In this document: positions 7,650 to 29,594 of the stretch, one piece after another
Layout of the letters: each line of letters opens with the position of its first letter
How positions within the stretch are numbered: the first letter of the stretch is position 1
Position numbers and translations under genes: made by a program
Virus record (IMG/VR): IMGVR_UViG_3300045988_058447
Span: 1-44,193 of that record
DNA: 44,193 nucleotides
Strand: one strand, 5' to 3'
Source: a virus
Notes under the pieces: generated by a model
Seen by the model: the letters and a program-made list of their open reading frames with translations, nothing else
The model's database searches: none
Told to the model about the DNA's origin: nothing

Positions 7650-8655
7650 CGTTTGCCATCTTACGATCTGCTAAAATGTCGTCACAGATGTAATATTTTT
7701 CCGTGACTGCTGTGTTTGCATGCCCCAGTCTGTGCGATACATATAAAATATCCTTTGTTCGGAGATATTCCCTAGATGCAAACGTCTTACGATAGACATG
7801 CACTGTGGCAACATTCCGGCATCCGGCACGCTCTGCGATCTCTTTCGCGATTTCTTCGATTGTTGCCTTACACAGCAGTTTCCCGGTTTCCACATTCCGG
7901 CTATTGAGGAATATATATCCTTCTTTTCTGCCATTTACATACTGTTCCAAGGCTACCCGACAATCCGGTGTCATAAAGCAAGTACGCCATTTACTGCTCT
8001 TTTCTCCGTAAATCTGGATTTCCCCACGTTCAAAGTCCAGATTTTCAATCTTAAGGTTACAGATCTCTCCCACACGAGGACCGGCACTAAGCATCAGTTC
8101 CAGAAGTGCTTTTTCACGCAAAGTCTTTAAGACGTTCTTGCATTTAGACACTTCATAATCAGATAAGCGTTTCTTGCGCTTCTGCGGGATTTTGATCTTG
8201 TCAATATCCCAGTATATGTCCTTGTCGATATGGTGTTTCCGGTACGCCCACTTGACAAATGCGGATAAACATTTCTGAATATTTCCGGCGTATGACTTCG
8301 AGATCTTGTCCCGATACTGCCTTATGGCAATATAATCCATTACGTCCTGTCCGGTCATAACGGCATAATGAAGTCCAGTTTCATTAAAGAATTTCTTTAA
8401 TGTGTACAGGTACATTTCAATCGTTTTCTCTTTCCTGCCGACTGCGATCAGATCAACGTGATATCTGCCGAGAATCCATTCATTATCCCTTACGTCCGTG
8501 GTTGGCAGCGTTTCGTCCGGCACCAAATGAAAACCTTTCATGCGATACGCAAGTGCTGTTTTCAAGCGTTCCGTCCCTTCGGCATCCAGATAACCAGTCA
8601 TGTCATATATAAGATCATTCACAAATTCTCCCTTTGTCATATAACTACCCTCCAA
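7642..8655 (-). CDS. Tyrosine recombinase (XerC/D / phage integrase family), second copy in the genome
   Basis: 337 aa with GPRVGEICNLK (Arg I), HVYRKTF (H-x-x-R) and LGHANTAVTEKYY (His...Tyr nucleophile). Confidence 0.8.
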   Translation of the reverse strand: MEGSYMTKGEFVNDLIYDMTGYLDAEGTERLKTALAYRMKGFHLVPDETLPTTDVRDNEWILGRYHVDLIAVGRKEKTIEMYLYTLKKFFNETGLHYAVMTGQDVMDYIAIRQYRDKISKSYAGNIQKCLSAFVKWAYRKHHIDKDIYWDIDKIKIPQKRKKRLSDYEVSKCKNVLKTLREKALLELMLSAGPRVGEICNLKIENLDFERGEIQIYGEKSSKWRTCFMTPDCRVALEQYVNGRKEGYIFLNSRNVETGKLLCKATIEEIAKEIAERAGCRNVATVHVYRKTFASREYLRTKDILYVSHRLGHANTAVTEKYYICDDILADRKMANVA

Positions 8656-8826: not shown

Positions 8827-8854
8827 TACGCAAACCGGAGCTGTCCGGTCTGTT
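8827..8854. repeat. 28-bp exact direct repeat, copy A (tacgcaaaccggagctgtccggtctgtt)
   Basis: Identical to 9238..9265. Contains the palindrome ACCGGA-GCTG-TCCGGT. Confidence 0.95.
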
Positions 8855-9210
8855 TAAAACAAACATATCTGCTGTTCATCGTAGTAATATTTCTTTCTTA
8901 CCGGTACATACCCACCGTAAAATATCCTCTTAACACGATCTCTCTGTTTCAGATTCGCCATATAGAAGTTGTCAACCTCTGGAGGTACTGAAAAATAATA
9001 TTCTTCCGGATATGGCAGATGCTTTTCTATACAGATTTCTGCGATTTTTCTCTGATAATATAGGATATGATTCCGCGTCAGATTCATGTTGCAGCCATCC
9101 GGCCAGAACGGATCATTACACCCGTTCTGATTGATATTTTTCCATTGTTCTATTTCTCTGCAAATGCACTGGCAGTACTCTTTCACTTTATCTTCTGCTG
9201 TCTGGATCAT
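8854..9210 (-). CDS. Cys-rich hypothetical protein (118 aa)
   Basis: The internal start MIQTAEDKVKEY is preceded by a GGAGGTGA RBS. The longer ORF-track form would overlap the MTase 3' end. Confidence 0.55.
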   Translation of the reverse strand: MIQTAEDKVKEYCQCICREIEQWKNINQNGCNDPFWPDGCNMNLTRNHILYYQRKIAEICIEKHLPYPEEYYFSVPPEVDNFYMANLKQRDRVKRIFYGGYVPVRKKYYYDEQQICLF

Positions 9211-9236
9211 GGCATCACCTCCACAAAATTTAAGGT

Positions 9237-10943
9237 TTACGCAAACCGGAGCTGTCCGGTCTGTTCCTGCGCAATCCTCATGTTTCCTGTGCGCTTTGCT
9301 ACACACAATTCTGGCAAGTTTGCTTTCACAAGCGCGGCGGGGATTGGTGGACATACCGCATTGCCACATCTGCGCACCTGTTCGCTTCTCGGATACTTTT
9401 TCCCTGTATAATCATGGTCGATTATGTAATCATTCGGAAATCCCTGGCATCCGTACAACTCTTTCGGTTCTAACATTCTCAGCCCGATATCTACGATCTG
9501 GTAATCCACACCCTCGATTGTCACAAGTCCGAATCTGTCTTTGGTCGTAACCGTATCAAGTGGCTGCTCTATATCCTGTCCTGTGGCATCTCCATAGTAT
9601 TTAATCAAAAACGCTCTGACTTCCCCGAAATGCCCCGGTGATGTAGTAATGGTATGTAATGGTTCTCTCATATCCTGCCCGGTGCCGCTCTTATAAAATT
9701 TACTTAAAAACGATGTAACCAATCCGTATCGGTTCGAACCATCCACAGTCATGATCGGATCTTTAATCGTCTGTCCCCTGACTTCTCCCTGTGCTGTCTC
9801 GGAATGGTACTGGATCAGTGTTGGGCTGATAAGGCATTGTTGATTACCTGTGGTAATCGTATGTATCGGATCTTTGCAGTTTCCGCCCGGGTGATTTGTC
9901 GTATTTGTTCCCATATATGGTGCAAGCGTTGGTTCAATCAGGCAATGCTCATTTTTGCTCACAATCGTTGTCAGCGGTTCTCTTACATCCTTACTCCGAT
10001 CCTTTGTGAACCCGGTCTGCCCGATCTGCACCATATACGGCTCTACAATCCCGTATCCATGCTTTCCGGTTATGGTCGGCATCGGTTCCCGGATATCGTT
10101 CGGTCTGCGCTCGCCGCCGTGATTACACTGGATGATAAATGGTTCTGGATTGTCGAGTACAAACTTTTTCAAACCTCTTGCAATCCGATCCATTGTTTTC
10201 TTTGCCAGTGGGCGAACCGCCCGGATACCGTACTTTTCTTTGATTTCCTCGGATGTGTCAAAAATGCTCGGACATGGCCGGCTGAAATCAATCTGTGTGT
10301 ATGCTCCTACGTATGGTTTTAACAGTCCGGCTTTTACCGCTTCGCTATCCGCAGGGGCGTGTGTTGGCTCTGGCCAGACAATCGGTTTACCATCACATCG
10401 TGCGATCATGAAGAATCGTTTGCGCATGGTCGGCGCTCCATAATCGGCGGCAATCAGCTCACGGAACTCCACTTTATAGCCAAGGTCCCGAAGTTGCTGT
10501 ACGAACCGCTCAAATGTCTTACCCTGTTTGCTTTTAATCGGATGATGCCGTCTGTTTAATGGTCCCCATGTTTTGAACTCTTCCACGTTCTCCAACATGA
10601 TCACCCGTGGTCTTACAAGTCCAGCCCATCGTAATGCTACCCATGCAAGACCACGGATATTCTTATCCTTTGGCTTTCCACCCTTGGCTTTGGAAAAATG
10701 CTTACAGTCCGGGGAAAACCAGGCAAGTCCGACCGGATGCCCATTGCATGCCTTGACCGGATCAACCGCCCACACGTTTTCACAGTAGTGCTTTGTATTC
10801 GGATGGTTTGCCTTGTGCATCTTAATAGCTTCTGGATCGTGATTGATCGCAATATCAACGCTGTATCCAGTTGCTAACTCTATACCGGTGGAAGCACCAC
10901 CGCCACCGGCGAAATTGTCAACGATCAGTTCTCCGTTAATCAT
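9237..10943 (-). CDS. DNA (cytosine-5)-methyltransferase with an expanded, six-fold repeated target-recognition region
   Basis: Motif I DNFAGGGG, motif IV FSPDCKHFS, motif VI ENV, motif VIII TMRKRFF, motif IX RMLEPKELYGCQGFP, motif X GNAVCPP. Confidence 0.9.
   Translation of the reverse strand: MINGELIVDNFAGGGGASTGIELATGYSVDIAINHDPEAIKMHKANHPNTKHYCENVWAVDPVKACNGHPVGLAWFSPDCKHFSKAKGGKPKDKNIRGLAWVALRWAGLVRPRVIMLENVEEFKTWGPLNRRHHPIKSKQGKTFERFVQQLRDLGYKVEFRELIAADYGAPTMRKRFFMIARCDGKPIVWPEPTHAPADSEAVKAGLLKPYVGAYTQIDFSRPCPSIFDTSEEIKEKYGIRAVRPLAKKTMDRIARGLKKFVLDNPEPFIIQCNHGGERRPNDIREPMPTITGKHGYGIVEPYMVQIGQTGFTKDRSKDVREPLTTIVSKNEHCLIEPTLAPYMGTNTTNHPGGNCKDPIHTITTGNQQCLISPTLIQYHSETAQGEVRGQTIKDPIMTVDGSNRYGLVTSFLSKFYKSGTGQDMREPLHTITTSPGHFGEVRAFLIKYYGDATGQDIEQPLDTVTTKDRFGLVTIEGVDYQIVDIGLRMLEPKELYGCQGFPNDYIIDHDYTGKKYPRSEQVRRCGNAVCPPIPAALVKANLPELCVAKRTGNMRIAQEQTGQLRFA
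9238..9265. repeat. 28-bp exact direct repeat, copy B (3' end of the C5-MTase gene)
   Basis: Identical to 8827..8854. Confidence 0.95.
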
Positions 10944-13462
10944 GGCATCACCTCCGGCATAAAATCAAACAATGTTGGCTCGTCCACCTCATTTTCCGCC
11001 GCCTGCAGATATCCAACACCATCCCGGAAGTAATCCGGATTCAATTCACATCCCTTACCGTTCCGGTGCATCTTAACCGCCATCATTGGAACTGTCATAA
11101 GACCACCAAACGGATCATAGACCGTATCACCCTCATTGCTATATCTGTTGATGATTCTCTCCACGATATCCAACTGTAACGGGCATACGTGCATCTGAGC
11201 GCGTCTGCGGCTCTGCGTGGTATTAAGGGTACGCATCCGGTTGATATCATCCCATACTTCCAGCTGATTCCATGATCCCGGTGCAACAACCATAAATGTT
11301 GCCGGGAGCTTCCCGTCCTTGTCCAGATCTTCCGCAAGTTTCACATGATCCTCATAGTTATATACATTGCCGCGGCTGTACTCTCTGTACACTGTCTGTA
11401 AGCTATCAACCGGGAAATCTTTGAGCTCTTCCTTGCTGATCAGTCGGTCTCCTGACGATCTCCAATAACCATGTGCATCAATCTGCCACTGTGCCCGGGT
11501 GTAATCCTCTTTGGATTTCTTGACCGGAACATCTGCGTATGCCGTAGATCTGTCGGTTGGCAGTTTACGGAAAAGTAAGATATATTCCGGACATCCTACA
11601 CCCATCTTTGAACCATCCTTGCACTGTTCCGTCCATCCGAGGCGGTATGTCTGGTTATTCTCACGAACCACATCAGTCACGACCGTAATCATGCCGAAAT
11701 ACTGAAAACCATGCTTCATGTAATGTGCAATACAGAGTGCATGAAACGGCTCTATTGTAGGCATACCGGTTCCGGTTGCATTGCCAAATAATACACGGTC
11801 CTTAACATGGATTGCAGCCACACGCCCCGGCTTCAGGACTCGGAGCAGTTCTGGTGTGAGAAAATCCATCTGCTCAAAAAATCGGTCCGTATTCTGGTTA
11901 TGCCCGAAATCGTTATAATTTGCACTGTATTCGTAATGGTTGCCGAATGGAATCGAGGTATGTATAAGATCAATGCTGTTCGTTTCCATTGCTCGGGTTT
12001 CCTCTACGCAATCCCCATATACCGCTTCATAATGGTTTCCTCTCACTGTTCTCTCTTCTCTGCTGCCTTCCACGCCCATCTTCCTTTCTAACCGCTGTGT
12101 CTTATTTTCCGAGTTAAGACCATACTTCTTTACAATCTCGATCATCTTTGCAACCATGTGATTGTGATTCTTCCATTTTTCAAGCAATGCTTCCCTAATC
12201 TGTCGCTCGTTCTCCATGTAGATAATGTCGATCACAACCGGTTCTTTCTGTAAAAAGCGGTAACACCGGTGTACCGCCTGAATAAAATCGTTGAACTCAT
12301 AATCAATTCCAAGGAATATCTCCCGGTGACAATATCTCTGAAAATTACATCCGGATCCAGATAATGATTTCTTCGTAGCGAACAACTTTGTCTGTCCATT
12401 CGAGAAATCAATTACCCTCTGCTCGCGCAGGTCATAATCCATCGATCCGTAGATATCCACCACTTCCGGCAACGCTTTCTTGATCGCATGCCGTTCATTC
12501 TCCAGATCGTGCCACAACAAGAAATGATCGTCCGGCGATTCTTCCACAATCCTTTTCATTTCTGTTACACGGCGGTCAATGCTTTCTCTTTTAACTGCCG
12601 CAGCTTCTTTCAATCCCTCGGCAGCTTCCTGAAATAACTGCATCTGGCCGTCACGATCTGCAGTATCGCCATAATGCACCGGCAATTCATGCCATCTTAC
12701 TTCAAGCGGCGGCAGATCATATCCCTCATCGGAATATACCGGATTGAGATCTGAAGGCTTCGTGATAAAAAGCGCCCAGCTTGACACCCACATCCAAAAT
12801 TCATCTTCCATATTTGGATATAATGTCAGATTGTTTGCTTTTGTGCTGTCTCTCTGGAAGAACCGCGTCAATGCCTGCCCGGTATCCATCACTTCCAGAT
12901 ATCCGGCATAATGGATCAGCTCTTTGTATTTGTTTGGTGATGGTGTAGCCGTGGCTACCAGCTTATACGGAACGTTCTTGAATTTATCCAAGAATGTCTG
13001 ATAAGTCTTGCTTCCGAAACTCCTTAAAACACTGGCTTCATCCAAGGATGTCGCTGTGAAGTAGTCTGGTCGGATATCTCCATCCCGGACACGCTCATAA
13101 TTTGTCAATACGATCTGGCTTATGCTCTGCTCCACTTCTTCCATTGTTCGGCAATACTCCGGCTTTTCATATCCAAGCACTTCCACCGCGTCATGTGTGA
13201 ACTCCTGCTTCACTCCAAGCGGTAACACGATCAACGCACGTCCGCCGCTATACTCTGCCGCCAAGTGGCAGAATTCAATTTCCTGCACGGTCTTTCCAAG
13301 TCCGAAACTTTCAAACAGTGCACGTCTGCCACCTTTCAGCGCCCACACCACAGCATCCCTCTGGTGCGGTTTCAATACCTTGTTGACTTTTTCCGGATCC
13401 ACAACAAATCCGCTTTCTGTTGCAAGTTCAATCTTTGTTTCTAAAAATTCTTTATATGTCAT
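10940..13462 (-). CDS. SNF2/DEAD-like helicase fused to an N6/N4 DNA methyltransferase
   Basis: Helicase motifs: GLGKT (aa 54-58), DEAS (141-144), TATPSPN (171-177), QAVHRCYR (395-402). MTase motifs: DLIHTSIPF (aa 498-506) and HVCPLQLDIVERII..GDTVYDPFGGLMT (aa 758-790). Confidence 0.85.
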   Translation of the reverse strand: MTYKEFLETKIELATESGFVVDPEKVNKVLKPHQRDAVVWALKGGRRALFESFGLGKTVQEIEFCHLAAEYSGGRALIVLPLGVKQEFTHDAVEVLGYEKPEYCRTMEEVEQSISQIVLTNYERVRDGDIRPDYFTATSLDEASVLRSFGSKTYQTFLDKFKNVPYKLVATATPSPNKYKELIHYAGYLEVMDTGQALTRFFQRDSTKANNLTLYPNMEDEFWMWVSSWALFITKPSDLNPVYSDEGYDLPPLEVRWHELPVHYGDTADRDGQMQLFQEAAEGLKEAAAVKRESIDRRVTEMKRIVEESPDDHFLLWHDLENERHAIKKALPEVVDIYGSMDYDLREQRVIDFSNGQTKLFATKKSLSGSGCNFQRYCHREIFLGIDYEFNDFIQAVHRCYRFLQKEPVVIDIIYMENERQIREALLEKWKNHNHMVAKMIEIVKKYGLNSENKTQRLERKMGVEGSREERTVRGNHYEAVYGDCVEETRAMETNSIDLIHTSIPFGNHYEYSANYNDFGHNQNTDRFFEQMDFLTPELLRVLKPGRVAAIHVKDRVLFGNATGTGMPTIEPFHALCIAHYMKHGFQYFGMITVVTDVVRENNQTYRLGWTEQCKDGSKMGVGCPEYILLFRKLPTDRSTAYADVPVKKSKEDYTRAQWQIDAHGYWRSSGDRLISKEELKDFPVDSLQTVYREYSRGNVYNYEDHVKLAEDLDKDGKLPATFMVVAPGSWNQLEVWDDINRMRTLNTTQSRRRAQMHVCPLQLDIVERIINRYSNEGDTVYDPFGGLMTVPMMAVKMHRNGKGCELNPDYFRDGVGYLQAAENEVDEPTLFDFMPEVMP

Positions 13463-13524
13463 TTTTCAAAAGGAACCCGATATATCGTTGCCCCGGCCGG
13501 AGGTTCGGCTCCTTTCTTAATGCT

Positions 13525-13605
13525 CTATTTTTTTAGATAATCATACAAAATGTTAACAATAAGCCCACATAAGATTTCGAAAATGATCTGATATACCTTA
13601 TCCAT
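13525..13605 (-). CDS. Candidate 26-aa hydrophobic micro-protein
   Basis: AAAAAGGAGG RBS 7 nt upstream of the ATG. Product is MDKVYQIIFEILCGLIVNILYDYLKK. Confidence 0.25.
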   Translation of the reverse strand: MDKVYQIIFEILCGLIVNILYDYLKK

Positions 13606-13681
13606 TTGCAGAACCTCCTTTTTCGTAATTGAGATCTCTGCATTTAATATGAAATAAGAAAATAACAAACAAATTAACTGC

Positions 13682-14896
13682 TTACAAAAAGTCTTCTAAA
13701 CTCATCTGCCCTTTGCAATTACCACCGATCGTTGTCGGATCCCATCCAACTCCAATGTAGTCCAGAACCTTCGCCCATCCGTAGTCGTTCCCGTCAGCAT
13801 CCTTGCACATATGGAACATCAGATAGTCCCACTCTTTCGGGTTGCTCTCATACAACAGATCAAACCGATGCGGTCGCTTCTCCATGTGGATTCCGAAGCC
13901 ACACATACTGCATCCGGTACGCTGTGCCTTTGTTGTATACAATGTACCGTCCGGCTTTCTCTCGATCGTACCGTAAATCTCCGGTATCAAAGATTCCGGC
14001 ATCTGAAAATCTTCTGTTATTATCCCATCCTTGATTCCAGCAGCACGATACTTCTCTTTTAATCCGTTCTTCCAGAGATCATCCATCTCCAAGGCAAGCG
14101 TAAGAATGTCCTGCCGGTGGAAGATTGCAAACGGCGCTGATCTGATCGTAGAAGCCCCGAAGTAATTGCATCCATTCATCCGCAGGCTCTTGGCACGTCT
14201 TCCACCCTCGGATGCCATCAGTCCCAAATATGGCACACTGTTATGCTCTTTTCCCCAGTCATCACAATTCTTTTCTTTAAGGTAATAGCAGCATTTCGCT
14301 GATACCAGAAAATCCGGCTTTTGAAAGTCGCATCCTTCGGTTTCATTTTCATACCCACCGAACAGCTTCAACCACCGCTGATTAAGCTGCATCTTCGAAT
14401 TCTTCTGCCAGCCACCATATTCCCCGGTCTCTCCCGTTATAATCGCGTGTCTGACTGTCTTATTCTTCTCGGTTGGATTCTGCAGCAACTCGATTTTCCC
14501 GGCGATTTCCTTAGATATGACCGGAAATCCAAATTCCTGTATAACCTTCGGTTTCGTCCATCTGGTCCCATCATCCCGCATGAGCGGCGGCACATTTATA
14601 ATTCCGATTGCTTTATGCACCCTCTGGATGCTTCGATCTTCCAAAGTCGATGCGGATACTCCCGGAACATCAATCCCGCAAACCTCATGGAGAAATATGT
14701 ATAAAATGATGCTATCCAGACCTCCGACTGATACATGGCAGTTCAAACCACGTTTATCACATTCTGATTTAAACTCTTCGGCTCTGATCTGCGCATACTT
14801 ACGCTTGAAAGCATAATCCTGCTTTTCTTTCTGCATGAACGAAGCGATCTTCTCATAAGCACCAAGTCTCTCCATTCTTTCTTTTACTGATTCCAT
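13682..14896 (-). CDS. PAPS-reductase / PP-loop ATP-pyrophosphatase family protein (DndC/IbrA/BrxP-like fold)
   Basis: 404 aa. PP-loop variant HVSVGGLDS, KCCYYLKE motif, C-terminal Cys cluster CSMCGFGIH. Confidence 0.65.
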   Translation of the reverse strand: MESVKERMERLGAYEKIASFMQKEKQDYAFKRKYAQIRAEEFKSECDKRGLNCHVSVGGLDSIILYIFLHEVCGIDVPGVSASTLEDRSIQRVHKAIGIINVPPLMRDDGTRWTKPKVIQEFGFPVISKEIAGKIELLQNPTEKNKTVRHAIITGETGEYGGWQKNSKMQLNQRWLKLFGGYENETEGCDFQKPDFLVSAKCCYYLKEKNCDDWGKEHNSVPYLGLMASEGGRRAKSLRMNGCNYFGASTIRSAPFAIFHRQDILTLALEMDDLWKNGLKEKYRAAGIKDGIITEDFQMPESLIPEIYGTIERKPDGTLYTTKAQRTGCSMCGFGIHMEKRPHRFDLLYESNPKEWDYLMFHMCKDADGNDYGWAKVLDYIGVGWDPTTIGGNCKGQMSLEDFL

Positions 14897-14955
14897 TTGT
14901 TTTTGGAGTAAAGAGCTCTTTTACGCTGGCCAGCAAACCTCTTACTCCTTTCGAC

Positions 14956-15060
14956 TTATTTTTTCTTTTTCCTTTTCTGCTTAAACTTAAAAACATCATT
15001 TTTCTGACGGCTTACCATGCTACGATAGCCGTTCATTTTACTGGCTCTGCTTTTACTCAT
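14956..15060 (-). CDS. Candidate 34-aa highly basic micro-protein
   Basis: The ATG is 3 nt after the ASCH stop, with an AAGGAG RBS. Product is MSKSRASKMNGYRSMVSRQKNDVFKFKQKRKKKK. Confidence 0.3.
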   Translation of the reverse strand: MSKSRASKMNGYRSMVSRQKNDVFKFKQKRKKKK

Positions 15061-15063
15061 ACC

Positions 15064-15738
15064 TCACACTCCTTTCGGTTTTTCACACCGCTCAAATTCG
15101 ATCACCCATACCCACGGGTTTGCATCCCAACTGTAACGATCAAGATCAGATTTCTTGATGGTTGAATCCCAAAGGTCATGAAACATACCTTTTACGAACT
15201 CGTCTCCGACGTATTTTAAATGTTCTTCTTCAATTCCTTCTTTCACACACCCTTTTCCGTCAATATCCTGCAACCGCTCCACCCTCACATCCGTAGCCCG
15301 GAGCCAGATACGTGCCGCTCCTTTCGGCATATGAATGGACGGACGGTATATCAGTTTTGATGATTCCTTAAATGTAGGCAAGTCTGCCAGCTTATCATCA
15401 GCCCTGTAAATATATGTTCCATCTTCATATCCTTCGCTCCATGTTTCTCTCACGTACAGTATATCGTCCGTGTGATATGGCGGATTCCATCGTTTGCTTA
15501 ATTCCTCATCTTTTATATTTTCCGGAAGCTTATATTCTTCGCCCCAAAATTCGTGTGCTCCCCTGTTTGGATATGTCCATTTTCCTATACAACCCTTGTG
15601 GCTTCCTGCGTATGTATAACATAATCTTGCTTTTGGTTGTGGCTTTACAACTCTCCTAGTACAACCTTTTCTTCCGTCCAGAATTGCTTGAACCATTTCT
15701 GTATTGAATAAAATCGGTTTAATTGCCATCTGCGCCAC
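15064..15738 (-). CDS. ASCH (PUA-like) domain protein
   Basis: N-terminal KPILFNTEMVQAILDGRKGCTRRV is the classic ASCH signature. Confidence 0.55.
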   Translation of the reverse strand: MAQMAIKPILFNTEMVQAILDGRKGCTRRVVKPQPKARLCYTYAGSHKGCIGKWTYPNRGAHEFWGEEYKLPENIKDEELSKRWNPPYHTDDILYVRETWSEGYEDGTYIYRADDKLADLPTFKESSKLIYRPSIHMPKGAARIWLRATDVRVERLQDIDGKGCVKEGIEEEHLKYVGDEFVKGMFHDLWDSTIKKSDLDRYSWDANPWVWVIEFERCEKPKGV

Positions 15739-16090
15739 CTACTCTTTCAAAATAGAACTTTATAGGTTCTCTGTTTTCCTGTACCATGCCATACCGCAAG
15801 GCTATATTGTATGTACACACATCTCTTTTCAGCCGGTCTGGTATTTTTTGCAGCTCTTTTCTAAAGTCTTCTAAGTCCATCGTTGACTTATACCGATTGC
15901 ACGAACCACAGGACGGCATAAGATTTTTGATATCATGCACGTCTATTTCTGTGTATTCATAATTTCTAAGGCAATGTAAATGGTCTACGTTGAAGCCTTT
16001 CTCCGGTATTTCACAGCCACAATAAGCGCAATGCCCATTGTATTTCGCATACACCTGTTTCCTTACGGATTTAGGAATCGGTTTTCGCAT
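15719..16090 (-). CDS. HNH endonuclease
   Basis: CAYCGCEI...VDHLHCL...N..PSCGSCNRYK. Confidence 0.75.
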   Translation of the reverse strand: MRKPIPKSVRKQVYAKYNGHCAYCGCEIPEKGFNVDHLHCLRNYEYTEIDVHDIKNLMPSCGSCNRYKSTMDLEDFRKELQKIPDRLKRDVCTYNIALRYGMVQENREPIKFYFERVGGADGN

Positions 16091-16316
16091 CTACTCCACC
16101 GCCTTTCACAATCTCGATCTTTACCCTCCTGTTCCATGTTTCCTTTGCTTTTCCCTGCGCGTCCATCTTGTTAGGAAATTCTTTAATTTTTACATACGGA
16201 CCAGCACATCCGCATTTACCGCATATAATCCTGTATCCTTCACTTCCCATTTTTCTTACACTCACTCTGCGGTCATGGCAGCCACAGAACGGGCACGGTT
16301 TAAGTTCTTTACTCAT
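16071..16316 (-). CDS. Lar-family restriction-alleviation-like zinc protein
   Basis: MSKELKPCPFCG...CGKCGCAG...AKETWNRR matches the recalled Lar family pattern. The start follows the YopX stop (TAGCATG). Confidence 0.5.
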   Translation of the reverse strand: MSKELKPCPFCGCHDRRVSVRKMGSEGYRIICGKCGCAGPYVKIKEFPNKMDAQGKAKETWNRRVKIEIVKGGGVDAKTDS

Positions 16317-16317
16317 G

Positions 16318-16719
16318 CTATTTCTCACTTTCTAACAACTCGGGATTGTCAAATTTGTTGCCGATAACACTACATTCACCCAAAACCTCATAGCTTTCAG
16401 CAGATAATCTGTTTGTCACTTGGAAAGACAATGTTTCTTCATCCCACACAACTTCACCGGCACAATCTGCTTCTGCATATCCGCTTTCTGTGCTATATGT
16501 GTCAAGATAAGCAATTACATCGTGTTCAAATATCAATTTCTCATCTCGATCTGTCCGTCCAGTGCACCGGCAGATGGTGGATGGAATACATTCGTAAAGT
16601 TTCCACTCCCCGCTTGTCTCACTAATTGCGACATGACCATCGGGTGAATCAATACGATTTCCGATAACCCATTCGCCGGTATCAGTCCTTTTGCCACGAC
16701 ATAAAAATCTATTTTCCAT
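16318..16719 (-). CDS. YopX family protein
   Basis: Starts MENRF..., has TGEWVIGN, and ends VIGNKFDNPELLE, which is typical of YopX. Confidence 0.65.
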   Translation of the reverse strand: MENRFLCRGKRTDTGEWVIGNRIDSPDGHVAISETSGEWKLYECIPSTICRCTGRTDRDEKLIFEHDVIAYLDTYSTESGYAEADCAGEVVWDEETLSFQVTNRLSAESYEVLGECSVIGNKFDNPELLESEK

Positions 16720-19469: not shown

Positions 19470-20312
19470 TCAACCGTCCATCAGCTTCCGGATCATGTCC
19501 TCCTGATGCAGCTCTGCGATATGATCCCGCACGCTTTCTTCCGGGAATGCGATCTGGTAGGTTCGCTCCTTGATCCGGTTCGTGATGCGGTCATCATACT
19601 GCAGCGTTTCCAGAGATTCATTACTTGTGAAAATCGTCACTTTCCGGTTTATATAACGCTCATTGATGATCTGGTACAGCTTGTCATTGATCCAGTCTGC
19701 CGGCCGTTCCACTCCGAAATCATCAATGACCAGGATATCTGTGGTGCAGAGTGCATCCAGCAAACGGCTCTCACTGTATTCCGCGTCCCGCCGCCATGTA
19801 TTCTTGATTTCCTGCAGGATGGTCAGTGATACCGCAAATTTGACTGCGTAGCTTTTCATCAGCTCGTTTGCAATCCCTGCCGCAATCCTTGTTTTCCCAC
19901 TGCCCTTTGTCCGGGACCAGATAAACAGTCCCATCCCCTGCTCCCTCTGGTTCTCAAAATCCCCGAGGTACGCTTTTATGATCCGGCAGGCATCCGACAC
20001 TTTCTTCCTGCTGTCCCGCTCCCGGTACACATCCATCCGAAATGTTTTCAGTTCCATTCCCCTGAATGCTTCCGGGATATCCGCAAACCGCAGCCGCCGC
20101 AACATGACCGCACGCTCCCGGCACTTACACGGCACGGCTGTTTCAATACCGTCCTTTTCGGTCAGAATCCATTCGCTGCCCTTGCAGACTGGGCACACAT
20201 CAGAACCCTTCGAAACATCCGGAACATCCGCGTTCTTCAAGCAGTTCGTTGAGCGCTTTTTCACGCGCTCCAGTATTCCGTTGATCATGTTTTTCATCTG
20301 CTGGTCCATCAT
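19470..20312 (-). CDS. DnaC/IstB-like AAA+ helicase loader with an N-terminal zinc ribbon
   Basis: CPVCKGSEW...PCKCR, Walker A SRTKGSGKT, Walker B ILVIDDFG. Confidence 0.8.
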   Translation of the reverse strand: MMDQQMKNMINGILERVKKRSTNCLKNADVPDVSKGSDVCPVCKGSEWILTEKDGIETAVPCKCRERAVMLRRLRFADIPEAFRGMELKTFRMDVYRERDSRKKVSDACRIIKAYLGDFENQREQGMGLFIWSRTKGSGKTRIAAGIANELMKSYAVKFAVSLTILQEIKNTWRRDAEYSESRLLDALCTTDILVIDDFGVERPADWINDKLYQIINERYINRKVTIFTSNESLETLQYDDRITNRIKERTYQIAFPEESVRDHIAELHQEDMIRKLMDG

Positions 20313-21023: not shown

Positions 21024-21653
21024 TCATTCCGCCTTCACAACAATTCCATACACCTTATACATCTGCCGGAACCGGATCACTCCCATCTGGTGAGCAATCG
21101 TATGGTGCTCCCTGCACAGGCAGATCTTCTTATAACCCGAATCATCCACCTTCCGGCGGTTATTTCCCATACCGATTGCATCTTCATGATGGATTTCCCC
21201 ATCCTTGCCGCAGATGGCACACTTTTTATGCATTAGGCAGTAATACAGATACCGCCCGATATCATCCGTCCGGTCAATCGCATTGTCTGAAAGCGGGATT
21301 CCCCACTCTAAAGCAAATTCCAAGATCGTATTGATAAACTCCCGCGCCGTATCCATAGAGCAATTGGAAAGACTGAAATCAGGATCTCCTGTACGGATCA
21401 TGTGCTCGTCCTTCAAAATTCTTTTCATCTGCTCCGACGGATATCCTGTCCAGTCTGCAATATCACGGATGGTTGCGTATGCTTTTTTTCGCTGTTCCGC
21501 AGATATGTGCCGCCCGTCATCAAACCGGATCTCTGCATTCTTGATCTTCTTTCTCTGGAGCAGCCCCCCAAGTTTCATTCCCGGAACAGAAACAACAAGA
21601 TCTGTTCCATCGCTGTTTTCCCGGTACTGCTTCACATCTACCATCGTATACAT
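21024..21653 (-). CDS. Putative HNH-like nuclease of the recombination module (HNHc_6-like)
   Basis: CAICGKDGEIHHEDAIGMG...CLCREHHTIAH. Lies adjacent to the SSAP gene. Confidence 0.45.
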   Translation of the reverse strand: MYTMVDVKQYRENSDGTDLVVSVPGMKLGGLLQRKKIKNAEIRFDDGRHISAEQRKKAYATIRDIADWTGYPSEQMKRILKDEHMIRTGDPDFSLSNCSMDTAREFINTILEFALEWGIPLSDNAIDRTDDIGRYLYYCLMHKKCAICGKDGEIHHEDAIGMGNNRRKVDDSGYKKICLCREHHTIAHQMGVIRFRQMYKVYGIVVKAE

Positions 21654-22273
21654 CAGTCATCACCATACTTCGATTTCAGACTGTTCAGCATTGTACCAAC
21701 ATCTTCTGCTGATAAACTGTCCCAAGTCTTTCCGTTGCTCGTGATCCAGTATTCAAGATTCACCTTATGTTTGAGGCACAGGTCTTTCAGGATCTTAATA
21801 TTTGCCGGGCTCGGCTTCTCCTCATTCCTCGGAATGATGTTGTTAAACGGCTGCATTTCTTCTTTGAGCCACAGGTTAAATCCAAGCCCCGTATGAATTG
21901 CCACACACTTTACAAAGGACCGGCACATACTGTTCCATACCCTCTGCTGGCTCATGGAATTATCCTTGACCGGATTGGAGCCATTCATCACCGGTGACTG
22001 CATTTCATACTCATTTTCATCAATAACGACATGTATCCGTGTCTCATAGCATCGGTTTGTATTTCCTTTGCTATCTGTGAAATCTTTTGAAACCATACGC
22101 AAAGAACTTCCCGTTCCCTCATCCGGAATCGGCACCCAGTAAACTTTCTTTGCACCATTCTCATGCAGCAAATCAATACATTTTGCCCAATTGAGATACG
22201 TCATTCCATCCCGTTCCTGGCAATATGGAGTTACGTCAATTTTGCGCATTTCTTCCCACGATTTAAGTGCCAT
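21653..22273 (-). CDS. Rad52-like single-strand annealing protein (Sak/DUF1071-type)
   Basis: GMTYLNWAKCIDLLHENGAKKVYW...SQQRVWNSMCRSFVKCVAIHTGLGFNLW. Confidence 0.55.
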   Translation of the reverse strand: MALKSWEEMRKIDVTPYCQERDGMTYLNWAKCIDLLHENGAKKVYWVPIPDEGTGSSLRMVSKDFTDSKGNTNRCYETRIHVVIDENEYEMQSPVMNGSNPVKDNSMSQQRVWNSMCRSFVKCVAIHTGLGFNLWLKEEMQPFNNIIPRNEEKPSPANIKILKDLCLKHKVNLEYWITSNGKTWDSLSAEDVGTMLNSLKSKYGDD

Positions 22274-24972: not shown

Positions 24973-25395
24973 ATGTATGAAATATTTGAAAAGCTATGCA
25001 AGGAAAAAGGCATAACACCGTATCGTTTTTGCAAAGATACTGGAATTAATTCATCTACAATAAGTACATGGAAAAATAAAGGTTCTGAATGCTCTGCAAA
25101 AACGGCAAAGGCAATATGCGAATACTTCAATGTAACAATGGACTATCTAATGACAGGGGGAACACAAATAGATGATCCTTATGCCATTACTGCATCGGAT
25201 GAAAGAGATATTGCCAAAGACATGGAAAATATGCGCAACAAATTATTAGATGAATCTGCTGGTCCACTATCCTATGACGGAGAACCGATACCAAAAGATG
25301 ATGCCGAGTTGCTGCTCGGACAAATAGAATTGATGATGCGCAAATTGAAACCGATCAATAAAGAAAAATATAATCCTAACAAAAACAAAAAGTAG
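24973..25395 (+). CDS. XRE-family repressor (CI-like)
   Basis: KLCKEKGITPYRFCKDTGINSSTISTWKNKGSECSAKTAKAICEYFNVTMDYLM. Confidence 0.8.
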   Translation: MYEIFEKLCKEKGITPYRFCKDTGINSSTISTWKNKGSECSAKTAKAICEYFNVTMDYLMTGGTQIDDPYAITASDERDIAKDMENMRNKLLDESAGPLSYDGEPIPKDDAELLLGQIELMMRKLKPINKEKYNPNKNKK

Positions 25396-25406
25396 GTGTT
25401 ACATAA

Positions 25407-25844
25407 TTGAGAAAAGACATAAAACAGTTAGTCAATTATTATGTAAGAAAATTTAATACCAGAAATCCATATGATCTTGCAAAAAGCCTAAATGTAGAGG
25501 TTCAAATTGGAGAGCTTGGCAGTCGCGCTGGATGTTATATGTTCCTAAAAAACCATAAATGCGTATTTCTGAACGAAGATCTGGAAGAAAATGAAATGCG
25601 GCTCGTAATGGCTCATGAGCTTGCACACTCGATTATGCACAGGAAAGAGAATTGTTACTTTATAAGAAACAAAACTTTGCTGCTCACATCCAAGATGGAA
25701 ATTGAAGCAAATACATTTGCCGCTGAGCTACTTATACCGGACGAATTGATTTTAGAAAATCCAGGCATATCGGCAGATCAGATAGCAAGAATCGCTGGAT
25801 ATGATAAAAAAATCATGAATTTTAAAAATAAAATCTTGATTTAG
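25407..25844 (+). CDS. ImmA/IrrE-family metallopeptidase (anti-repressor protease)
   Basis: HEXXH motif MAHELAHSIMH, TTG start, immediately downstream of the repressor. Confidence 0.75.
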   Translation: MRKDIKQLVNYYVRKFNTRNPYDLAKSLNVEVQIGELGSRAGCYMFLKNHKCVFLNEDLEENEMRLVMAHELAHSIMHRKENCYFIRNKTLLLTSKMEIEANTFAAELLIPDELILENPGISADQIARIAGYDKKIMNFKNKILI

Positions 25845-25855
25845 GGAGAACAATT

Positions 25856-27040
25856 ATGTTTTTTGATAAAATCTTGAATTTTTTCAAAATAGAGAATCTA
25901 TACAAAGAATCTGATTTTAGAGACTCTCATTTTCAATCAAATAACATTAAGTGTGATAATACTGCTCATCAAACAGAAAATTATATTGGTCCTGCCTCAA
26001 CTCATGAGCATGTTATGGAAATACTGTCTTATTGGAGTCAACATCAATATCAAAAAGTTAATTATAATTACTATCGAGAAGCTTCTTCTTCTGAAAAACA
26101 AGAATATGCTCTGATAGATATATTATCCTGTTTTTCAAAAGGGGCTCGCAATTTACATAGCTTTTCGCAAAACAGGTTGCATGATCTCGGGATTATCAAT
26201 TTTGACTCCTATACTCAGTTCTTGATTTCAGAAAAATATATTATGCGGGCGGATATAATAAATACACTTATTGCAAAATATAATTCTCAAGAATTAAAAA
26301 CAATAGCCGAAAGTGTAGGAGTAAAAAAGACTGGTAATAAATCCGAATTGGCGCAACGAATTGCAAATGAGCTTTCTTCTTCTGAGGTAAATAGAATACT
26401 CAGTGAAAATCCATTATATATTCTTTCTGAAAAGGGGCATTCTTACCTTGCAGCAAATGAAGATTATGTGCCACTACATAAATATTTATATTTGATTTCA
26501 CTCGCAGAATTTAATGATAACAGAATACCTAATGGCGGACGATACCACCGGAACTTTTATGACACAATGTTTCAGATTTTAACAAATAGGAAGTTCTTTT
26601 TTGAACGCCATAGGGACTTCGAAGATGTTGGTTCAATATCTTTACAACTATACAATATGCTAATTGAAGAATCAAAGAAAACAACCAACAATGTTCCTGC
26701 CGATGTTATATCAACTAACTACGTTGAAAATTTGTATATACAAACGTGTTTTTGTTTTCACGCATATAGCTCGTTGGAGCATGGCGTTTTCCCCAGTTCT
26801 TACAACAGTTATATTGTTCCAAAGCCAAATAAAGATACCGAAAAATTAGCAAGCCAAGAACCTTATATAAATTATGAATTGTTATTTATCAATAAACCTC
26901 CAAGTTTCTTTACATATAGCGAATTCAAACAATACATCCACGAAATGTTATCTGGTCAAATGTTTGATGGGCAGAAATGGGATTTAAAAATTCAAAATAG
27001 AGTAAGGGAATTTGACAATATGATTAAAGGAGAATACTAA
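25856..27040 (+). CDS. SAP-domain protein of unknown function (lysogeny-module cargo)
   Basis: 394 aa. SAP-like motif ELKTIAESVGVKKTGNKSELAQRIANEL. The DNA is AT-rich by eye. Confidence 0.6.
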   Translation: MFFDKILNFFKIENLYKESDFRDSHFQSNNIKCDNTAHQTENYIGPASTHEHVMEILSYWSQHQYQKVNYNYYREASSSEKQEYALIDILSCFSKGARNLHSFSQNRLHDLGIINFDSYTQFLISEKYIMRADIINTLIAKYNSQELKTIAESVGVKKTGNKSELAQRIANELSSSEVNRILSENPLYILSEKGHSYLAANEDYVPLHKYLYLISLAEFNDNRIPNGGRYHRNFYDTMFQILTNRKFFFERHRDFEDVGSISLQLYNMLIEESKKTTNNVPADVISTNYVENLYIQTCFCFHAYSSLEHGVFPSSYNSYIVPKPNKDTEKLASQEPYINYELLFINKPPSFFTYSEFKQYIHEMLSGQMFDGQKWDLKIQNRVREFDNMIKGEY

Positions 27041-27041
27041 T

Positions 27042-27383
27042 ATGGCACTATTCAAATGTCCAGAATGTGGAGACTTAATTAGTACTGAAACTATTCACTG
27101 CCCCAAATGTGGATATGACGTGCATACATATATGGAAGAAAACGGGGATAAAATTCAGTGCAATCATTGTTGGAAATTAAATACTCCAGGATCAACGCGC
27201 TGCATATATTGTGGAAATAATCTACAATATTCAAATACAGTGCGTCAAGGACTTCCAAAAGATGAAATGAAACAGGAAAAAGTAGAGGAGCATGAAAGAA
27301 AGACTCTTCCACTGATTATAACCGTTGTTATAATTGTTTTATTATTGCTCTGCTTAGTACCAAAAGTTTTTGTAATTGTATAA
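27042..27383 (+). CDS. Double zinc-ribbon protein with a C-terminal membrane anchor
   Basis: CPECG...CPKCG, then CNHC...CIYCG, then LPLIITVVIIVLLLLCLVPKVFVIV. The start is 1 nt after the upstream stop. Confidence 0.6.
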   Translation: MALFKCPECGDLISTETIHCPKCGYDVHTYMEENGDKIQCNHCWKLNTPGSTRCIYCGNNLQYSNTVRQGLPKDEMKQEKVEEHERKTLPLIITVVIIVLLLLCLVPKVFVIV

Positions 27384-27448
27384 TAAAAACCGCCCCGGTG
27401 CTGAAACACCGAGACGGCAAACGTGCTCCGAAGATACACGCCGTGAAC
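27381..27448 (-). ncRNA. Candidate minus-strand sRNA (about 68 nt) between the cargo genes and int
   Basis: Promoter TTGATT (27478..27483) - 17 nt - TGaTACAAT (-10 at 27455..27460). The terminator CCGUCUCGGUG-UUUCAG-CACCGGGGCGG + UUUUUAUUAU pairs fully only in the minus sense (two G-U pairs). Confidence 0.45.
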
Positions 27449-27524
27449 AAGCATATTGTATCATTCGGAGCGCGATAAATCAACTACCGCGCTATTTTTG
27501 CGCCTATTTTTAGGAGGATACAAT

Positions 27525-28610
27525 ATGGCTAAAGCAAAAAAACTACCATCCGGCAAATGGAGAACACAGGTATACGACTACACAGAAGTTTTGCCAGACG
27601 GGAAAAAGAAAAAACATATGCGGTCTTTTACAGCCGATACAAAAAAAGAGTCTGAATACTTGGCATCACAGTTTGCCTTTACTAAAAAATCCACTCCAAC
27701 TACAGCTATGACGCTCATAGAAGGGATTGACAGGTACATAGAAACCTATTTAGAGGTATTATCTGCCACTACTATATCAGGATATAAAACCATCAAGGAT
27801 AACGCCTTTAAAACCGTTATGAATGTTCCGATCAGCAAAATAAACAGCGATATTATGCAACGTGCCATAAACGAAGAGTGTAAAAGAAAATCCGATTCCA
27901 GACGTTGCAAGGGAAAGCCTATCTCTTCCAAAACGGTAGTAAACGAATATGGTCTAATATCCACAGTGATAAAAAAATATTCCCCTGGAACCATATTGGA
28001 TGTAAAACTGCCAACCCCGGCAAAAGTTATACACGACATTTCATCACCGAATGTAATTTTCAACATGGTAAAAGGCACAGAGATTGAATTGCCAGTGTTG
28101 CTTGCAATGTGGTTAAGTTTCACACTGTCGGAAATAAAAGGATTAACCAAGTCCGGATCTATAAAAGGGGATTATATTTTTATAGATCAGGTTACCATTA
28201 CAGTTGATGGGAAAGAAATTGACAAAAAGATTGCAAAGAATGACGCTCGTAACAGAATGTTACTGATGCCGGAATACATTAAAGAACTGATTGACAAAGT
28301 GACTACTGACAGATTGGTTACTCTAAGCGCAAAGGCTGTAGCAAACCGGTTTACTTATATGCTTAAGAAGAATGGTCTACCTCATATGTCTTTCCACGAT
28401 TTGCGGCACGTGAACGCGTCAGTGATGGCAATGCTGAACGTTCCGGACAAATATGCAATGGAACGCGGCGGGTGGAAAACAGATAAGATCATGAAAGGAA
28501 CCTACATGCAGACGTATCGGGCAGAACGAATCGCCGTAGATCAAAAAATAGACGATTATTTCAATAACTTTATCGACAAAAGTTCACACGAAAGTTCACA
28601 CGAAAAATAA
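27525..28610 (+). CDS. int: Tyrosine integrase
   Basis: Starts MAKAKKLPSGKWRTQVYDY after an AGGAGG RBS. HDLRH...GGWKTDKIMKGTYMQTY. Last gene of the lysogeny module, next to attP. Confidence 0.85.
   Translation: MAKAKKLPSGKWRTQVYDYTEVLPDGKKKKHMRSFTADTKKESEYLASQFAFTKKSTPTTAMTLIEGIDRYIETYLEVLSATTISGYKTIKDNAFKTVMNVPISKINSDIMQRAINEECKRKSDSRRCKGKPISSKTVVNEYGLISTVIKKYSPGTILDVKLPTPAKVIHDISSPNVIFNMVKGTEIELPVLLAMWLSFTLSEIKGLTKSGSIKGDYIFIDQVTITVDGKEIDKKIAKNDARNRMLLMPEYIKELIDKVTTDRLVTLSAKAVANRFTYMLKKNGLPHMSFHDLRHVNASVMAMLNVPDKYAMERGGWKTDKIMKGTYMQTYRAERIAVDQKIDDYFNNFIDKSSHESSHEK
28578..28604. repeat. Arm-type repeat A: AAA + 2 x AGTTCACACGAA (inside the int 3' end)
   Basis: Exact 27-bp copy of 28782..28808. 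Confidence 0.9.
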
Positions 28611-28611
28611 A

Positions 28612-28637
28612 AAGGTGCTTATTTAAGCACCTTTTTT
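28612..28637. terminator. Bidirectional rho-independent terminator (ends int on the plus strand and the late/lysis operon on the minus strand)
   Basis: AAGGTGCTT-ATTT-AAGCACCTT flanked by an A-run on the left and a T-run on the right. Confidence 0.8.
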
Positions 28638-28639
28638 AG

Positions 28640-28665
28640 TGGACTAGACGGGAGTCGAACCCCTC
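28640..28665 (-). other. Putative attP core that mimics a tRNA 3' end
   Basis: Minus strand reads AGGGG-TTCGACT-CCCGT-CTAGTCC-A, which corresponds to a T-arm (one mismatch), a 3' acceptor strand and a discriminator. No upstream tRNA body is present. Confidence 0.5.
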
Positions 28666-28781
28666 ATGCATAAAATTCCGCAACCGTTGATATTACTGCA
28701 CTTTGCATTTTATCCAGCAAAATCAAGGCTTTCACATTTCACATATCGTTTCTTCTTTCACATGGACTCGCAAATTTCGGA

Positions 28782-28808
28782 AAAAGTTCACACGAAAGTT
28801 CACACGAA
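28782..28808. repeat. Arm-type repeat B: AAA + 2 x AGTTCACACGAA
   Basis: Exact 27-bp copy of 28578..28604, on the other side of the attP core. Confidence 0.9.
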
Positions 28809-28816
28809 TTGTACTC

Positions 28817-29359: not shown

Positions 29360-29365
29360 ATGTAA

Positions 29366-29593: not shown

Positions 29594-29594
29594 A

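Follow-up and report, generated by a model that had tools for sequence, protein, structure and literature searches.

Nine tightly packed, co-directional open reading frames (ORFs) lie at positions 8854-16328 on the minus strand of the IMG/VR viral record IMGVR_UViG_3300045988_058447, a temperate siphovirus genome or prophage of about 44 kb from a phage of a gut bacterium (44,193 nucleotides; the whole stretch is hereafter the window). They bring together a PP-loop protein of the phosphoadenosine phosphosulfate (PAPS) reductase superfamily, a fusion of an SNF2-type ATPase to a DNA methylase, a C5-cytosine methylase with repeats resembling target recognition domains (TRDs), and a Lar-family protein. 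The question raised by this block is whether its genes build a composite system that protects phage DNA by more than methylation, as a preliminary description of the sequence had suggested, or have accumulated at one site independently of each other. We propose, with a probability of about 0.7, that these genes form the distal end of the replication-side early operon in a temperate siphovirus akin to Roseburia phage Jekyll, and that the block is a recombination hotspot of independently exchangeable accessory genes, functionally equivalent to the nin region of lambda. Such a block is commonplace in phages of this kind and not a new multi-gene system; its parts are already known, namely multi-TRD C5-methylases, Lar, methylase-SNF2 dyads and PAPS-reductase-like genes of the NinC type. 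All nine of the co-directional ORFs listed in the preliminary description are present, and are given here in the order in which they are read, with lengths in amino acids (aa) or nucleotides (nt):

16071-16328, minus strand: Lar-family zinc-ribbon restriction-alleviation protein, 85 aa from a GTG start (81 aa if read from the ATG at 16316)
15719-16090, minus strand: small HNH endonuclease, 123 aa
15064-15738, minus strand: 224-aa protein, probably ASCH or PUA-like
14956-15060, minus strand: 34-aa basic ORF with an AAGGAG Shine-Dalgarno sequence 8 nt upstream
13682-14896, minus strand: PP-loop protein of the PAPS-reductase superfamily (hereafter PAPS-like protein), 404 aa, lambda NinC family (phrog_424)
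13525-13605 (extending to 13668 from a TTG), minus strand: 26-aa hydrophobic ORF with an AGGAGG Shine-Dalgarno sequence 8 nt upstream
10940-13462, minus strand: SNF2::N6/N4-methylase fusion, 840 aa, with a SWI2/SNF2 ATPase at the N-terminus and a beta-class DNA methyltransferase at the C-terminus
9237-10943, minus strand: C5-cytosine DNA methyltransferase, 568 aa
8854-9210, minus strand: Cys-rich protein, 118 aa with 7 Cys, the last gene of the block

Reassortment of the block genes among related phages

We compared the block with approximately 240 related phage loci, from which three IMG/VR sets are described here. The first comprises 80 loci encoding a PAPS-like protein 88-98% identical to that of the window, and the remaining genes recur in it as follows:

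SNF2::methylase fusion: 25 of 80
C5-methylase: 33 of 80
Cys-rich ORF: 27 of 80
224-aa protein: 26 of 80
Lar: 10 of 80
HNH: 9 of 80

The second set consists of 80 loci with an SNF2 fusion at least 88% identical to that of the window; the PAPS-like gene is present in 42 of these and missing from 38, the C5-methylase occurs in 39, and the gene order varies, with the PAPS-like gene sometimes situated downstream rather than upstream of the methylases. The third set was anchored on a neutral neighbour, the gene for the DUF4417 protein, and contains 56 loci that each extend at least 8 kb upstream. The PAPS-like gene is found in nine of these 56 loci and a methylase in 27; where the PAPS-like gene is present a methylase accompanies it in seven loci and is absent from two, and where the PAPS-like gene is absent a methylase is present in 20 loci and absent from 27. 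This association falls short of significance (Fisher odds ratio 4.7, p = 0.07), and relatedness among the loci is a confounder. The exact nine-gene set was found in none of the approximately 240 related loci. Among the closest, one (L037) lacks only the C5-methylase, and another (L031) has the PAPS-like, SNF2::methylase, C5-methylase and Cys-rich genes and lacks those for Lar, HNH and the ASCH-like protein. The closest isolate, Roseburia phage Jekyll (LR596902), has the same genome layout and encodes Lar, YopX, a C5-methylase and an ASCH-like protein in the corresponding region, but differs from the window in having neither the PAPS-like gene nor the SNF2::methylase. Inheritance of the block is therefore mosaic, each gene being present or absent independently in close relatives.

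In 56 of 71 informative loci, a DNA methylase gene follows the PAPS-like gene within 1.5 kb; at least 15 of the 71 have none, and the methylases in this slot belong to at least four unrelated families (SNF2::beta-class, C5, D12 Dam-like and stand-alone N6_N4). As methylases occupy the slot in most relatives, with or without the PAPS-like gene, the simplest reading is a shared recombination hotspot. Genes for distant homologues of the PAPS-like protein occupy quite other places: the early genes of a Mu-like phage, the interval that separates portal from protease in a Ruminococcus phage, the head-gene region of a Clostridium perfringens phage, the nin regions of the P22-like phage Tyrion and of lambda, and, in phage Saumur and small rolling-circle elements, a site next to a replication initiator and a hypothetical protein. 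Such unrelated contexts suggest independently mobile cassettes and not an operon for one machine.

These observations bear directly on the composite system envisaged in the preliminary description, in which the PAPS-like enzyme, the SNF2::methylase and the C5-methylase would jointly install a mark beyond 5-methylcytosine, N6-methyladenine and N4-methylcytosine (m5C/m6A/m4C), for example a phosphorothioate (PT) or a hypermodified base. The co-directional, tightly packed arrangement of the genes speaks for it, as does the methylase placed directly after the PAPS-like gene in 56 of 71 loci. It is countered by the shifting family of the partner methylase and its absence from at least 15 of those 71 loci, by the 38 of 80 SNF2::methylase loci without a PAPS-like gene, and by the distant PAPS-like homologues that have no methylase as a neighbour.

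The two methylases and the Lar-like protein

The C-terminal domain of the SNF2 fusion is matched by PF01555 (aa 497-813, 2.8e-18, 67.1 bits against a cut-off of 26.7) and its N-terminal part by PF00176 (aa 33-184, 25.1 bits against a cut-off of 24.9) and weakly by PF00271, and phrog_16 covers nearly the whole protein (4e-125 over aa 10-835). The helicase-methylase fusion proposed from the sequence is thus upheld, with both Pfam domains above their cut-offs and a single phage family spanning the fusion. Its motifs include a Walker A GLGKT (aa 54-58), DEAS (aa 141-144), SIPF (aa 503-506) and, as motif I, DPFGG (aa 783-787). Sequence matches in the PDB include beta-class methylases (2zie, MboIIA and an N4C methylase), and the nearest solved relatives are beta-class N6A and N4C enzymes. 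Methylase-SNF2 dyads are common in phages and plasmids, where they have been tied to counter-restriction (PMC5512222); a study of plasmid single-strand methyltransferases (PMC7736820) does not concern SNF2 fusions. Like the DarB-type dyad of P1 (PMC5512222), the window protein fuses an SNF2-type ATPase to an amino-methyltransferase on a mobile element, and the predicted role shared by the two is translocation-coupled protective methylation against restriction. Unlike the DarB archetype, it has the SNF2 part at the N-terminus and a beta-class PF01555 methylase with an atypical SIPF motif, and at 840 aa it is without extra polyvalent domains; moreover, it is known here from its sequence, whereas DarB itself is packaged in the virion. 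The fusion architecture is itself that of a large phage family, phrog_16.

The C5-methylase is firmly recognized by PF00145 (5e-26, in two stretches) and phrog_116 (6.3e-103), and its gene has about 81% DNA identity to that of the Jekyll cytosine methylase. Its catalytic motifs are FAGGGG (aa 11), SPDCK (aa 77), RKRFF (aa 174), CQGFP (aa 499) and GNAV (aa 527). Motifs VIII and IX are separated by a variable region of approximately 300 aa that contains, at aa 279-488, the six tandem TRD-like repeats that had been noted previously; these are real, if divergent, with units of 33-37 aa starting near aa 286, 322, 358, 395, 427 and 460, a core of the form (D/E)P(L/I/M)xT(I/V)...G(L)(V/I), and a pairwise identity of only 17-41%. 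The number of copies varies among 44 distinct homologues from related phages, with four copies in two proteins, five in 23, six in 15 and seven in four. Multispecific C5-methylases of the Bacillus phages SPR, phi3T, rho11s and SPbeta are reportedly the subject of Trautner et al. 1996 (EMBO J 15:1434). Like these, the window enzyme is a phage-borne orphan C5-methylase in which TRD-like modules, each built around a T(I/V/L) core, are arrayed in tandem between motifs VIII and IX, and the module number is likewise variable among homologues (four to seven in the family of the window protein). Compared with the Bacillus-phage enzymes, its units are shorter (about 33-37 aa), more numerous (six) and only 17-41% identical, and the six repeats could jointly form one large TRD.

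The Lar-like protein, with its CPFC...CGKC motifs, scores above the curated cut-offs of both PF14354 (6.6e-11, 42.7 bits; cut-off 28.6) and TIGR03655 (2.9e-11, 43.5 bits; cut-off 39.6), in agreement with the earlier call, and matches phrog_599 (3.7e-11). Based on the two methylases and this Lar-family protein, all three of which the analysis confirms, the DNA-modification and anti-restriction theme ascribed to the block is a reasonable one.

The PAPS-reductase-like protein

The 404-aa protein has no match in NCBIfam, in Pfam (E<=10) or in PADLOC (E<=0.1), and a direct search of PDB sequences with it returned only noise. It is nonetheless probably a member of the PF01507 superfamily, by transitive homology, given its match to phrog_424, the recognition of PF01507 by 12 of 20 full-length distant homologues (best 4.6e-29) and its retained PP-loop; the previous assignment to the PP-loop PAPS-reductase family is supported by this indirect route and not through any direct match to these profile libraries. 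The phrog_424 match has an E-value of 1.5e-18, against 1.2e-89 for lambda NinC, and a family profile built from the 20 homologues aligns with NinC over 174 columns (E 1.6e-05, probability 79%). An exhaustive HMMER search recovered 1179 cluster representatives at E<=0.001. The same 20 relatives match the BrxP model in eight cases, SspD in four and DndC in one or two, and only eight match the CysH or adenosine phosphosulfate (APS) reductase models TIGR00434 or TIGR02055, below the curated scale; the profile of the 20 finds only weak PP-loop matches in the PDB, the best being CysD (8e-4). As these weaker matches are spread evenly over BrxP, SspD, DndC, QueC, CysH, APS reductase and CysD, they indicate similarity at the level of the superfamily and no specific affiliation.

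The PP-loop of the protein reads VGGLDS (aa 57-62), with G59, D61 and S62 invariant in the family and SGGKDS in distant members. Its cysteines comprise an invariant Cys-Cys dyad (aa 202-203), C243 and a CxxC (aa 329-332) within a C-terminal RTGCxxCxFG, and the family has a conserved insert of its own, GFPVxSKxxAxxIxxLQNPTxxNxxxRxxxxTG. The CC...CxxC pattern is the arrangement of cluster ligands in assimilatory APS reductases, and the protein probably carries an iron-sulfur (Fe-S) cluster. Its AlphaFold2 (AF2) model has a predicted local distance difference test score (pLDDT) of 77.6, and the leading Foldseek matches of the model in the PDB are all PP-loop enzymes (NAD synthetase, APS/PAPS reductase, TtuA and GMP synthetase). 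These matches are weak, with E-values of 0.09-1, none being below 0.09, and template-modelling (TM) scores of 0.2-0.5; that of highest probability is a plant APS reductase (0.94, E 0.15). The fold class agrees with a PP-loop enzyme without settling the matter. Among viral models, uncharacterised proteins come first, followed by models labelled CysH/PAPS reductase (E 0.02, probability 0.97). Our reading is that the protein is an ATP-pyrophosphatase closer to those superfamily members that transfer sulfur or amide groups (DndC, TtuA, QueC and similar enzymes) than to the reductases. Three longer homologues (P0137, P0165 and P0223) were inspected for informative domain fusions, and were set aside as apparent chimeras or frameshift products from metagenomes, with additions such as a tail resembling a tape measure protein or a further PP-loop domain. 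One of them, the 625-aa metagenomic P0137, joins a NinC-like fragment (73% identical, aa 85-247) to a second, DndC-like PP-loop domain with the motifs SGGKDS, RWCT and GCWCC, and is probably a chimera of assembly or gene calling; a genuine protein of this form would unite the two PAPS-reductase branches.

The shared PHROG 424 relates the window protein to lambda NinC (orf-290, annotated as a PAPS reductase family protein), and the nin region itself has the same placement as the block, between the replication genes and the late-gene switch, both being collections of dispensable accessory genes. Differences lie in the length of the two proteins (404 aa against 290 aa), in the much weaker phrog_424 match of the window protein, and in its conserved insert, CC dyad and CxxC, where NinC has a single Cys at the position of the dyad. 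Furthermore, no methylase or Lar adjoins NinC in the lambda nin region, unlike in the window. The lambda gene is non-essential (PMC10695390), and we found no published experimental function for NinC or for phage PAPS-reductase-like proteins.

Closer relatives are encoded by the Enterocloster phages Saumur and Villandry, with PAPS-like proteins 69% and 55% identical to that of the window, but in other gene contexts and without an SNF2::methylase. In the clade at 69% identity (L168-L171, for example L169:7226-8224, and Saumur, L002:2050-3030) the PAPS-like gene is followed by one for a conserved protein of 299-332 aa, and the pair adjoins a rolling-circle replication initiator (Rep). This protein matches PDB 5vf4, an uncharacterized protein, at 1.5e-24 and has a GNFWEWV-type motif reminiscent of FGE-sulfatase or EgtB-like enzymes. 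It is absent from the window, and is a possible clade-specific partner of the PAPS-like protein.

Alternative roles for the PAPS-reductase-like gene

Known PT systems also bear on the composite reading. For PT synthesis, a PAPS-reductase-domain protein needs two kinds of partner, an ATPase of the DndD, SspC or BrxC type and a subunit for DNA recognition or nicking (PMC12914056; PMC12707154), and isolates with a PAPS-domain gene but without the ATPase make no PT (PMC12914056; PMC12707154; PMC12839542). With the Dnd, Ssp and type 4 BREX systems the window shares a PP-loop protein of the PAPS-reductase superfamily, and the resemblance of its distant relatives to BrxP, SspD and DndC favors a composite system, as does its Cys-Cys dyad, a feature that has been called characteristic of DndC (PMC12839542); the dyad constitutes a resemblance only. 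On the other hand, the window protein itself matches no DndC, SspD or BrxP model in PADLOC (E<=0.1), and neither a DndE- or SspB-type partner nor the DndD, SspC or BrxC ATPase needed for PT (PMC12914056) was found. For the ATPase, this result covers the island proteins (PADLOC and Pfam) and the large ORFs of the window, the small ORFs having been partly scanned; the other large ORFs encode terminase, portal, tail, integrase and repressor-module proteins. In contrast to PT systems, the proteins scanned in the window include no partner ATPase, no recognition or nickase subunit and no linked cysteine desulfurase, and the PAPS-like protein is phage-borne and stand-alone. The lack of PT partners among these proteins, together with the lack of a match to DndC, SspD or BrxP, leaves membership in these systems unsupported, and we rejected type 4 BREX, Dnd and Ssp for want of partner genes. 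IbrAB was rejected for want of a ParB partner, as neither an IbrB-type ParB-like protein nor a DUF3440 domain had a Pfam match in any island protein. In light of the free reassortment of the genes, the stand-alone distant homologues, and the missing PT ATPase and ParB partner, the claim of a composite system going beyond methylation does not hold up, and we consider such a system improbable. The preliminary description recognized no described system with this exact gene set, and the reason is that the set is not one system, its single parts having already been described.

A second alternative is that the gene is an auxiliary metabolic gene (AMG), encoding a CysH-type (P)APS reductase that boosts sulfate assimilation by the host during infection, as most phage annotations assume. 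The reductase name is borne by PHROG 424 and many GenBank records, eight of the 20 distant homologues match CysH and APS-reductase models, the CC...CxxC pattern is as in assimilatory APS reductases, and the highest-probability structural match is the plant APS reductase. The catalytic cysteine of sulfonucleotide reductases is carried by a C-terminal ECG(L/I)H motif, and a search of the PAPS-like protein for this motif found none, nor any ECG at all. Phage PAPS-reductase genes are handled as AMGs in the literature (PMC8879888; PMC12323421; PMC11318856). Against this usage, the window protein has no direct match to CysH, APS-reductase or PAPS_reduct models, keeps an ATP-type PP-loop together with the family-specific insert, and has DNA-metabolism genes as neighbours with no other sulfate-assimilation gene alongside. 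The missing catalytic motif led us to reject the CysH reading of this gene, to which we give little chance of being correct.

We regard as very unlikely the remaining idea, that the enzyme is a stand-alone mimic of host DndC, SspD or BrxP which docks with the PT machinery of the host so that phage DNA receives the host 'self' mark: PT systems occur in approximately 7.7% of human-gut isolates (PMC12914056), members of the family resemble BrxP, SspD and DndC, and a gene that travels alone would rely on host factors, yet the likeness to PT enzymes is no greater than that to CysH, promiscuous docking is unlikely given the co-evolution of PT enzymes with the ATPase and DNA-recognition proteins that partner them (PMC12707154), and lambda NinC belongs to the phage biology of E. 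coli K-12 with no PT system involved.

Proposed function of the block

Returning to the nin-like hotspot of exchangeable genes, we propose that most of the block genes help phage DNA to outlast host restriction. During lytic replication, the two methylases would modify progeny DNA: the C5-methylase may act at several target sequences through its stacked TRD-like modules, by analogy with the Bacillus-phage enzymes, and the SNF2 fusion, if it behaves like the DarB dyad, would couple ATP-driven translocation on double-stranded DNA to processive adenine-N6 or cytosine-N4 methylation. The Lar-like protein is predicted to dampen type I restriction, and the joint effect would be progeny DNA that is protected in advance against the restriction-modification systems of the next host. 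In this scheme each gene would work alone, those for the ASCH-like, HNH and Cys-rich proteins and the small peptides not being needed by the others, and the PAPS-like enzyme would likewise act alone with host factors and not as a subunit with the methylases. For the latter we tentatively suggest an ATP-pyrophosphatase that adenylates a nucleic acid, either DNA or tRNA, and then transfers sulfur or another nucleophile by means of its CC...CxxC Fe-S cluster and a host sulfur relay. A bolder proposal, which we consider doubtful, is that the NinC family as a whole comprises stand-alone ATP- and Fe-S-dependent enzymes that mark phage DNA, for example with sulfur, from the slot of the orphan methylases, and thus represents an unrecognised anti-restriction class; this idea of nucleic-acid marking derives from the DNA-modification neighbourhood of the PAPS-like gene, with a methylase next in 56 of 71 loci.

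Several points weigh against the hotspot interpretation and the functions assigned under it. The compared loci belong to a single phage group and derive from human-gut metagenomes; their counts carry no correction for phylogeny. The positional link between the genes, with a methylase following in 56 of 71 loci and present in seven of the nine loci of the third set that bear the PAPS-like gene, may still reflect a functional tie of the latter to DNA modification. Motif IV of the SNF2 fusion reads SIPF instead of the canonical (D/N/S)PP(Y/F), such that its methylase activity is assumed, and the specificities of both methylases and the substrate of the PAPS-like protein are predictions from family membership and motifs alone.

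Other genes of the block

The HNH nuclease call proved firm, with matches to PF01844 (3.3e-05, 24.4 bits; cut-off 21.4) and phrog_2118 (1.5e-36). For the 224-aa protein, an ASCH or PUA-like identity as given in the preliminary description is tentative. It is supported by 48% identity to a Jekyll protein annotated as 'YqfB-like, ASCH domain', by the label 'ASCH domain protein' that public sources give to close homologues, and by Foldseek, whose five best matches in the PDB are ASCH proteins without exception (E 0.12-0.6). That search used a low-confidence AF2 model (pLDDT 47.6, from a 28-sequence alignment of sequences 77-95% identical). On the opposite side, the protein has no Pfam match, and its family profile aligns with E. 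coli YqfB over only 22 N-terminal columns around an ILxGRKxxTRR motif (E 0.004, probability 8.5%). Its one strong match, phrog_874 (1.6e-56), is a PHROG without an assigned function.

All three of the small ORFs without recognized domains are present as previously listed. Seven distinct variants of the 34-aa ORF from related loci show substitutions at codon positions 1:2:3 in the ratio 16:14:56 and no internal stops, and on the strength of this third-position bias it is probably a real gene. It is conserved at 72-100% amino-acid identity, and lies directly upstream of the SNF2::methylase even in loci without the PAPS-like gene (L093, L097, L105, L107, L111, L113 and others), thereby acting like a conserved leader or boundary of whichever cassette comes next; it may mark a recombination junction or be a small regulator. 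The 26-aa candidate ORF was found by protein search in four of the 80 loci of the first set. Its six copies in related loci are all identical and the codon-position pattern gives no signal, so that variation lends its coding status no support. The Cys-rich protein has no match in Pfam, PHROG, NCBIfam, PADLOC or the PDB. Homologues of it were found in 27 loci of the first set and 20 of the second (80 loci each), always at the downstream end of the block, after the SNF2::methylase, the C5-methylase, a D12 methylase or the PAPS-like gene.

Genome setting

Nearly all genes from position 1 to 24.6 kb are on the minus strand, over which the GC skew is strongly negative. Within the block the ORFs for Lar and HNH overlap by 20 nt, those for HNH and the 224-aa protein by 20 nt, and those of the SNF2::methylase and C5-methylase by 4 nt. 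The G+C content over the methylase genes (10-12 kb) is 0.475-0.498, compared with 0.42-0.45 on the flanks, which fits acquired cassettes. The features around the block are the following:

1303-2772: portal, on the late-gene side of the block
2964-4883, minus strand: fused TerS-TerL, 639 aa, with small-terminase profiles at aa 16-191 (phrog_51, 7e-35) and large-terminase profiles at aa 234-618
5971-6603, minus strand: DUF4417 protein (PF14386 1.2e-59; phrog_940 'nuclease'), just upstream of the terminase
7642-8655 (with 7383-7649), minus strand: second tyrosine recombinase, 337 aa (PF00589 9e-24, with an N-terminal SAM-like domain)
19470-20312: DnaC-like helicase loader, upstream of the block
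21653-22273: Sak-like annealing protein, upstream of the block
24973-28610, plus strand: lysogeny module of helix-turn-helix repressor, ImmA/IrrE-like peptidase and integrase, separate from the block

The Sak-like and DnaC-like genes at 19.4-22.3 kb and the TerS-TerL and portal genes at 1.3-4.9 kb place the block between the replication and late genes, as had been stated before. Small accessory genes, YopX among them, are also found upstream of it. A terminase fusion comparable to that of the window, of 632 aa, is encoded by one relative (L004), and the DUF4417 gene keeps its position in many related phages. The second tyrosine recombinase is placed between the accessory block and the late genes, separate from the lysogeny integrase at 27456-28610. 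Its homologues occur in 5 of 80 and 15 of 80 loci of the first two sets, in each case immediately after the Cys-rich ORF or a methylase; it may serve in dimer resolution or as an inversion switch, or may belong to a separate mobile element. The plus-strand region at 24973-29672 has a low G+C content (0.32-0.41) and also encodes a 394-aa SAP-domain protein and a zinc-ribbon protein, which could be morons expressed from the prophage.

Implications

The block is a further example of temperate gut phages stacking orphan methylases and restriction-alleviation genes in a hotspot; while not new in kind, it is useful for predicting the host range of Lachnospiraceae phages and for their engineering. 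The natural presence and absence variants, including L037, L031 and Jekyll, offer ready-made material for comparison. In viromes from the gut and the environment, few genes receive the label 'auxiliary metabolic' as often as those of the PAPS-reductase-like family. Should it be true that the PAPS-like enzyme modifies nucleic acid, many annotations of 'sulfur metabolism' in viromes would be wrong, and the forty-year-old question of the function of lambda NinC would be answered.

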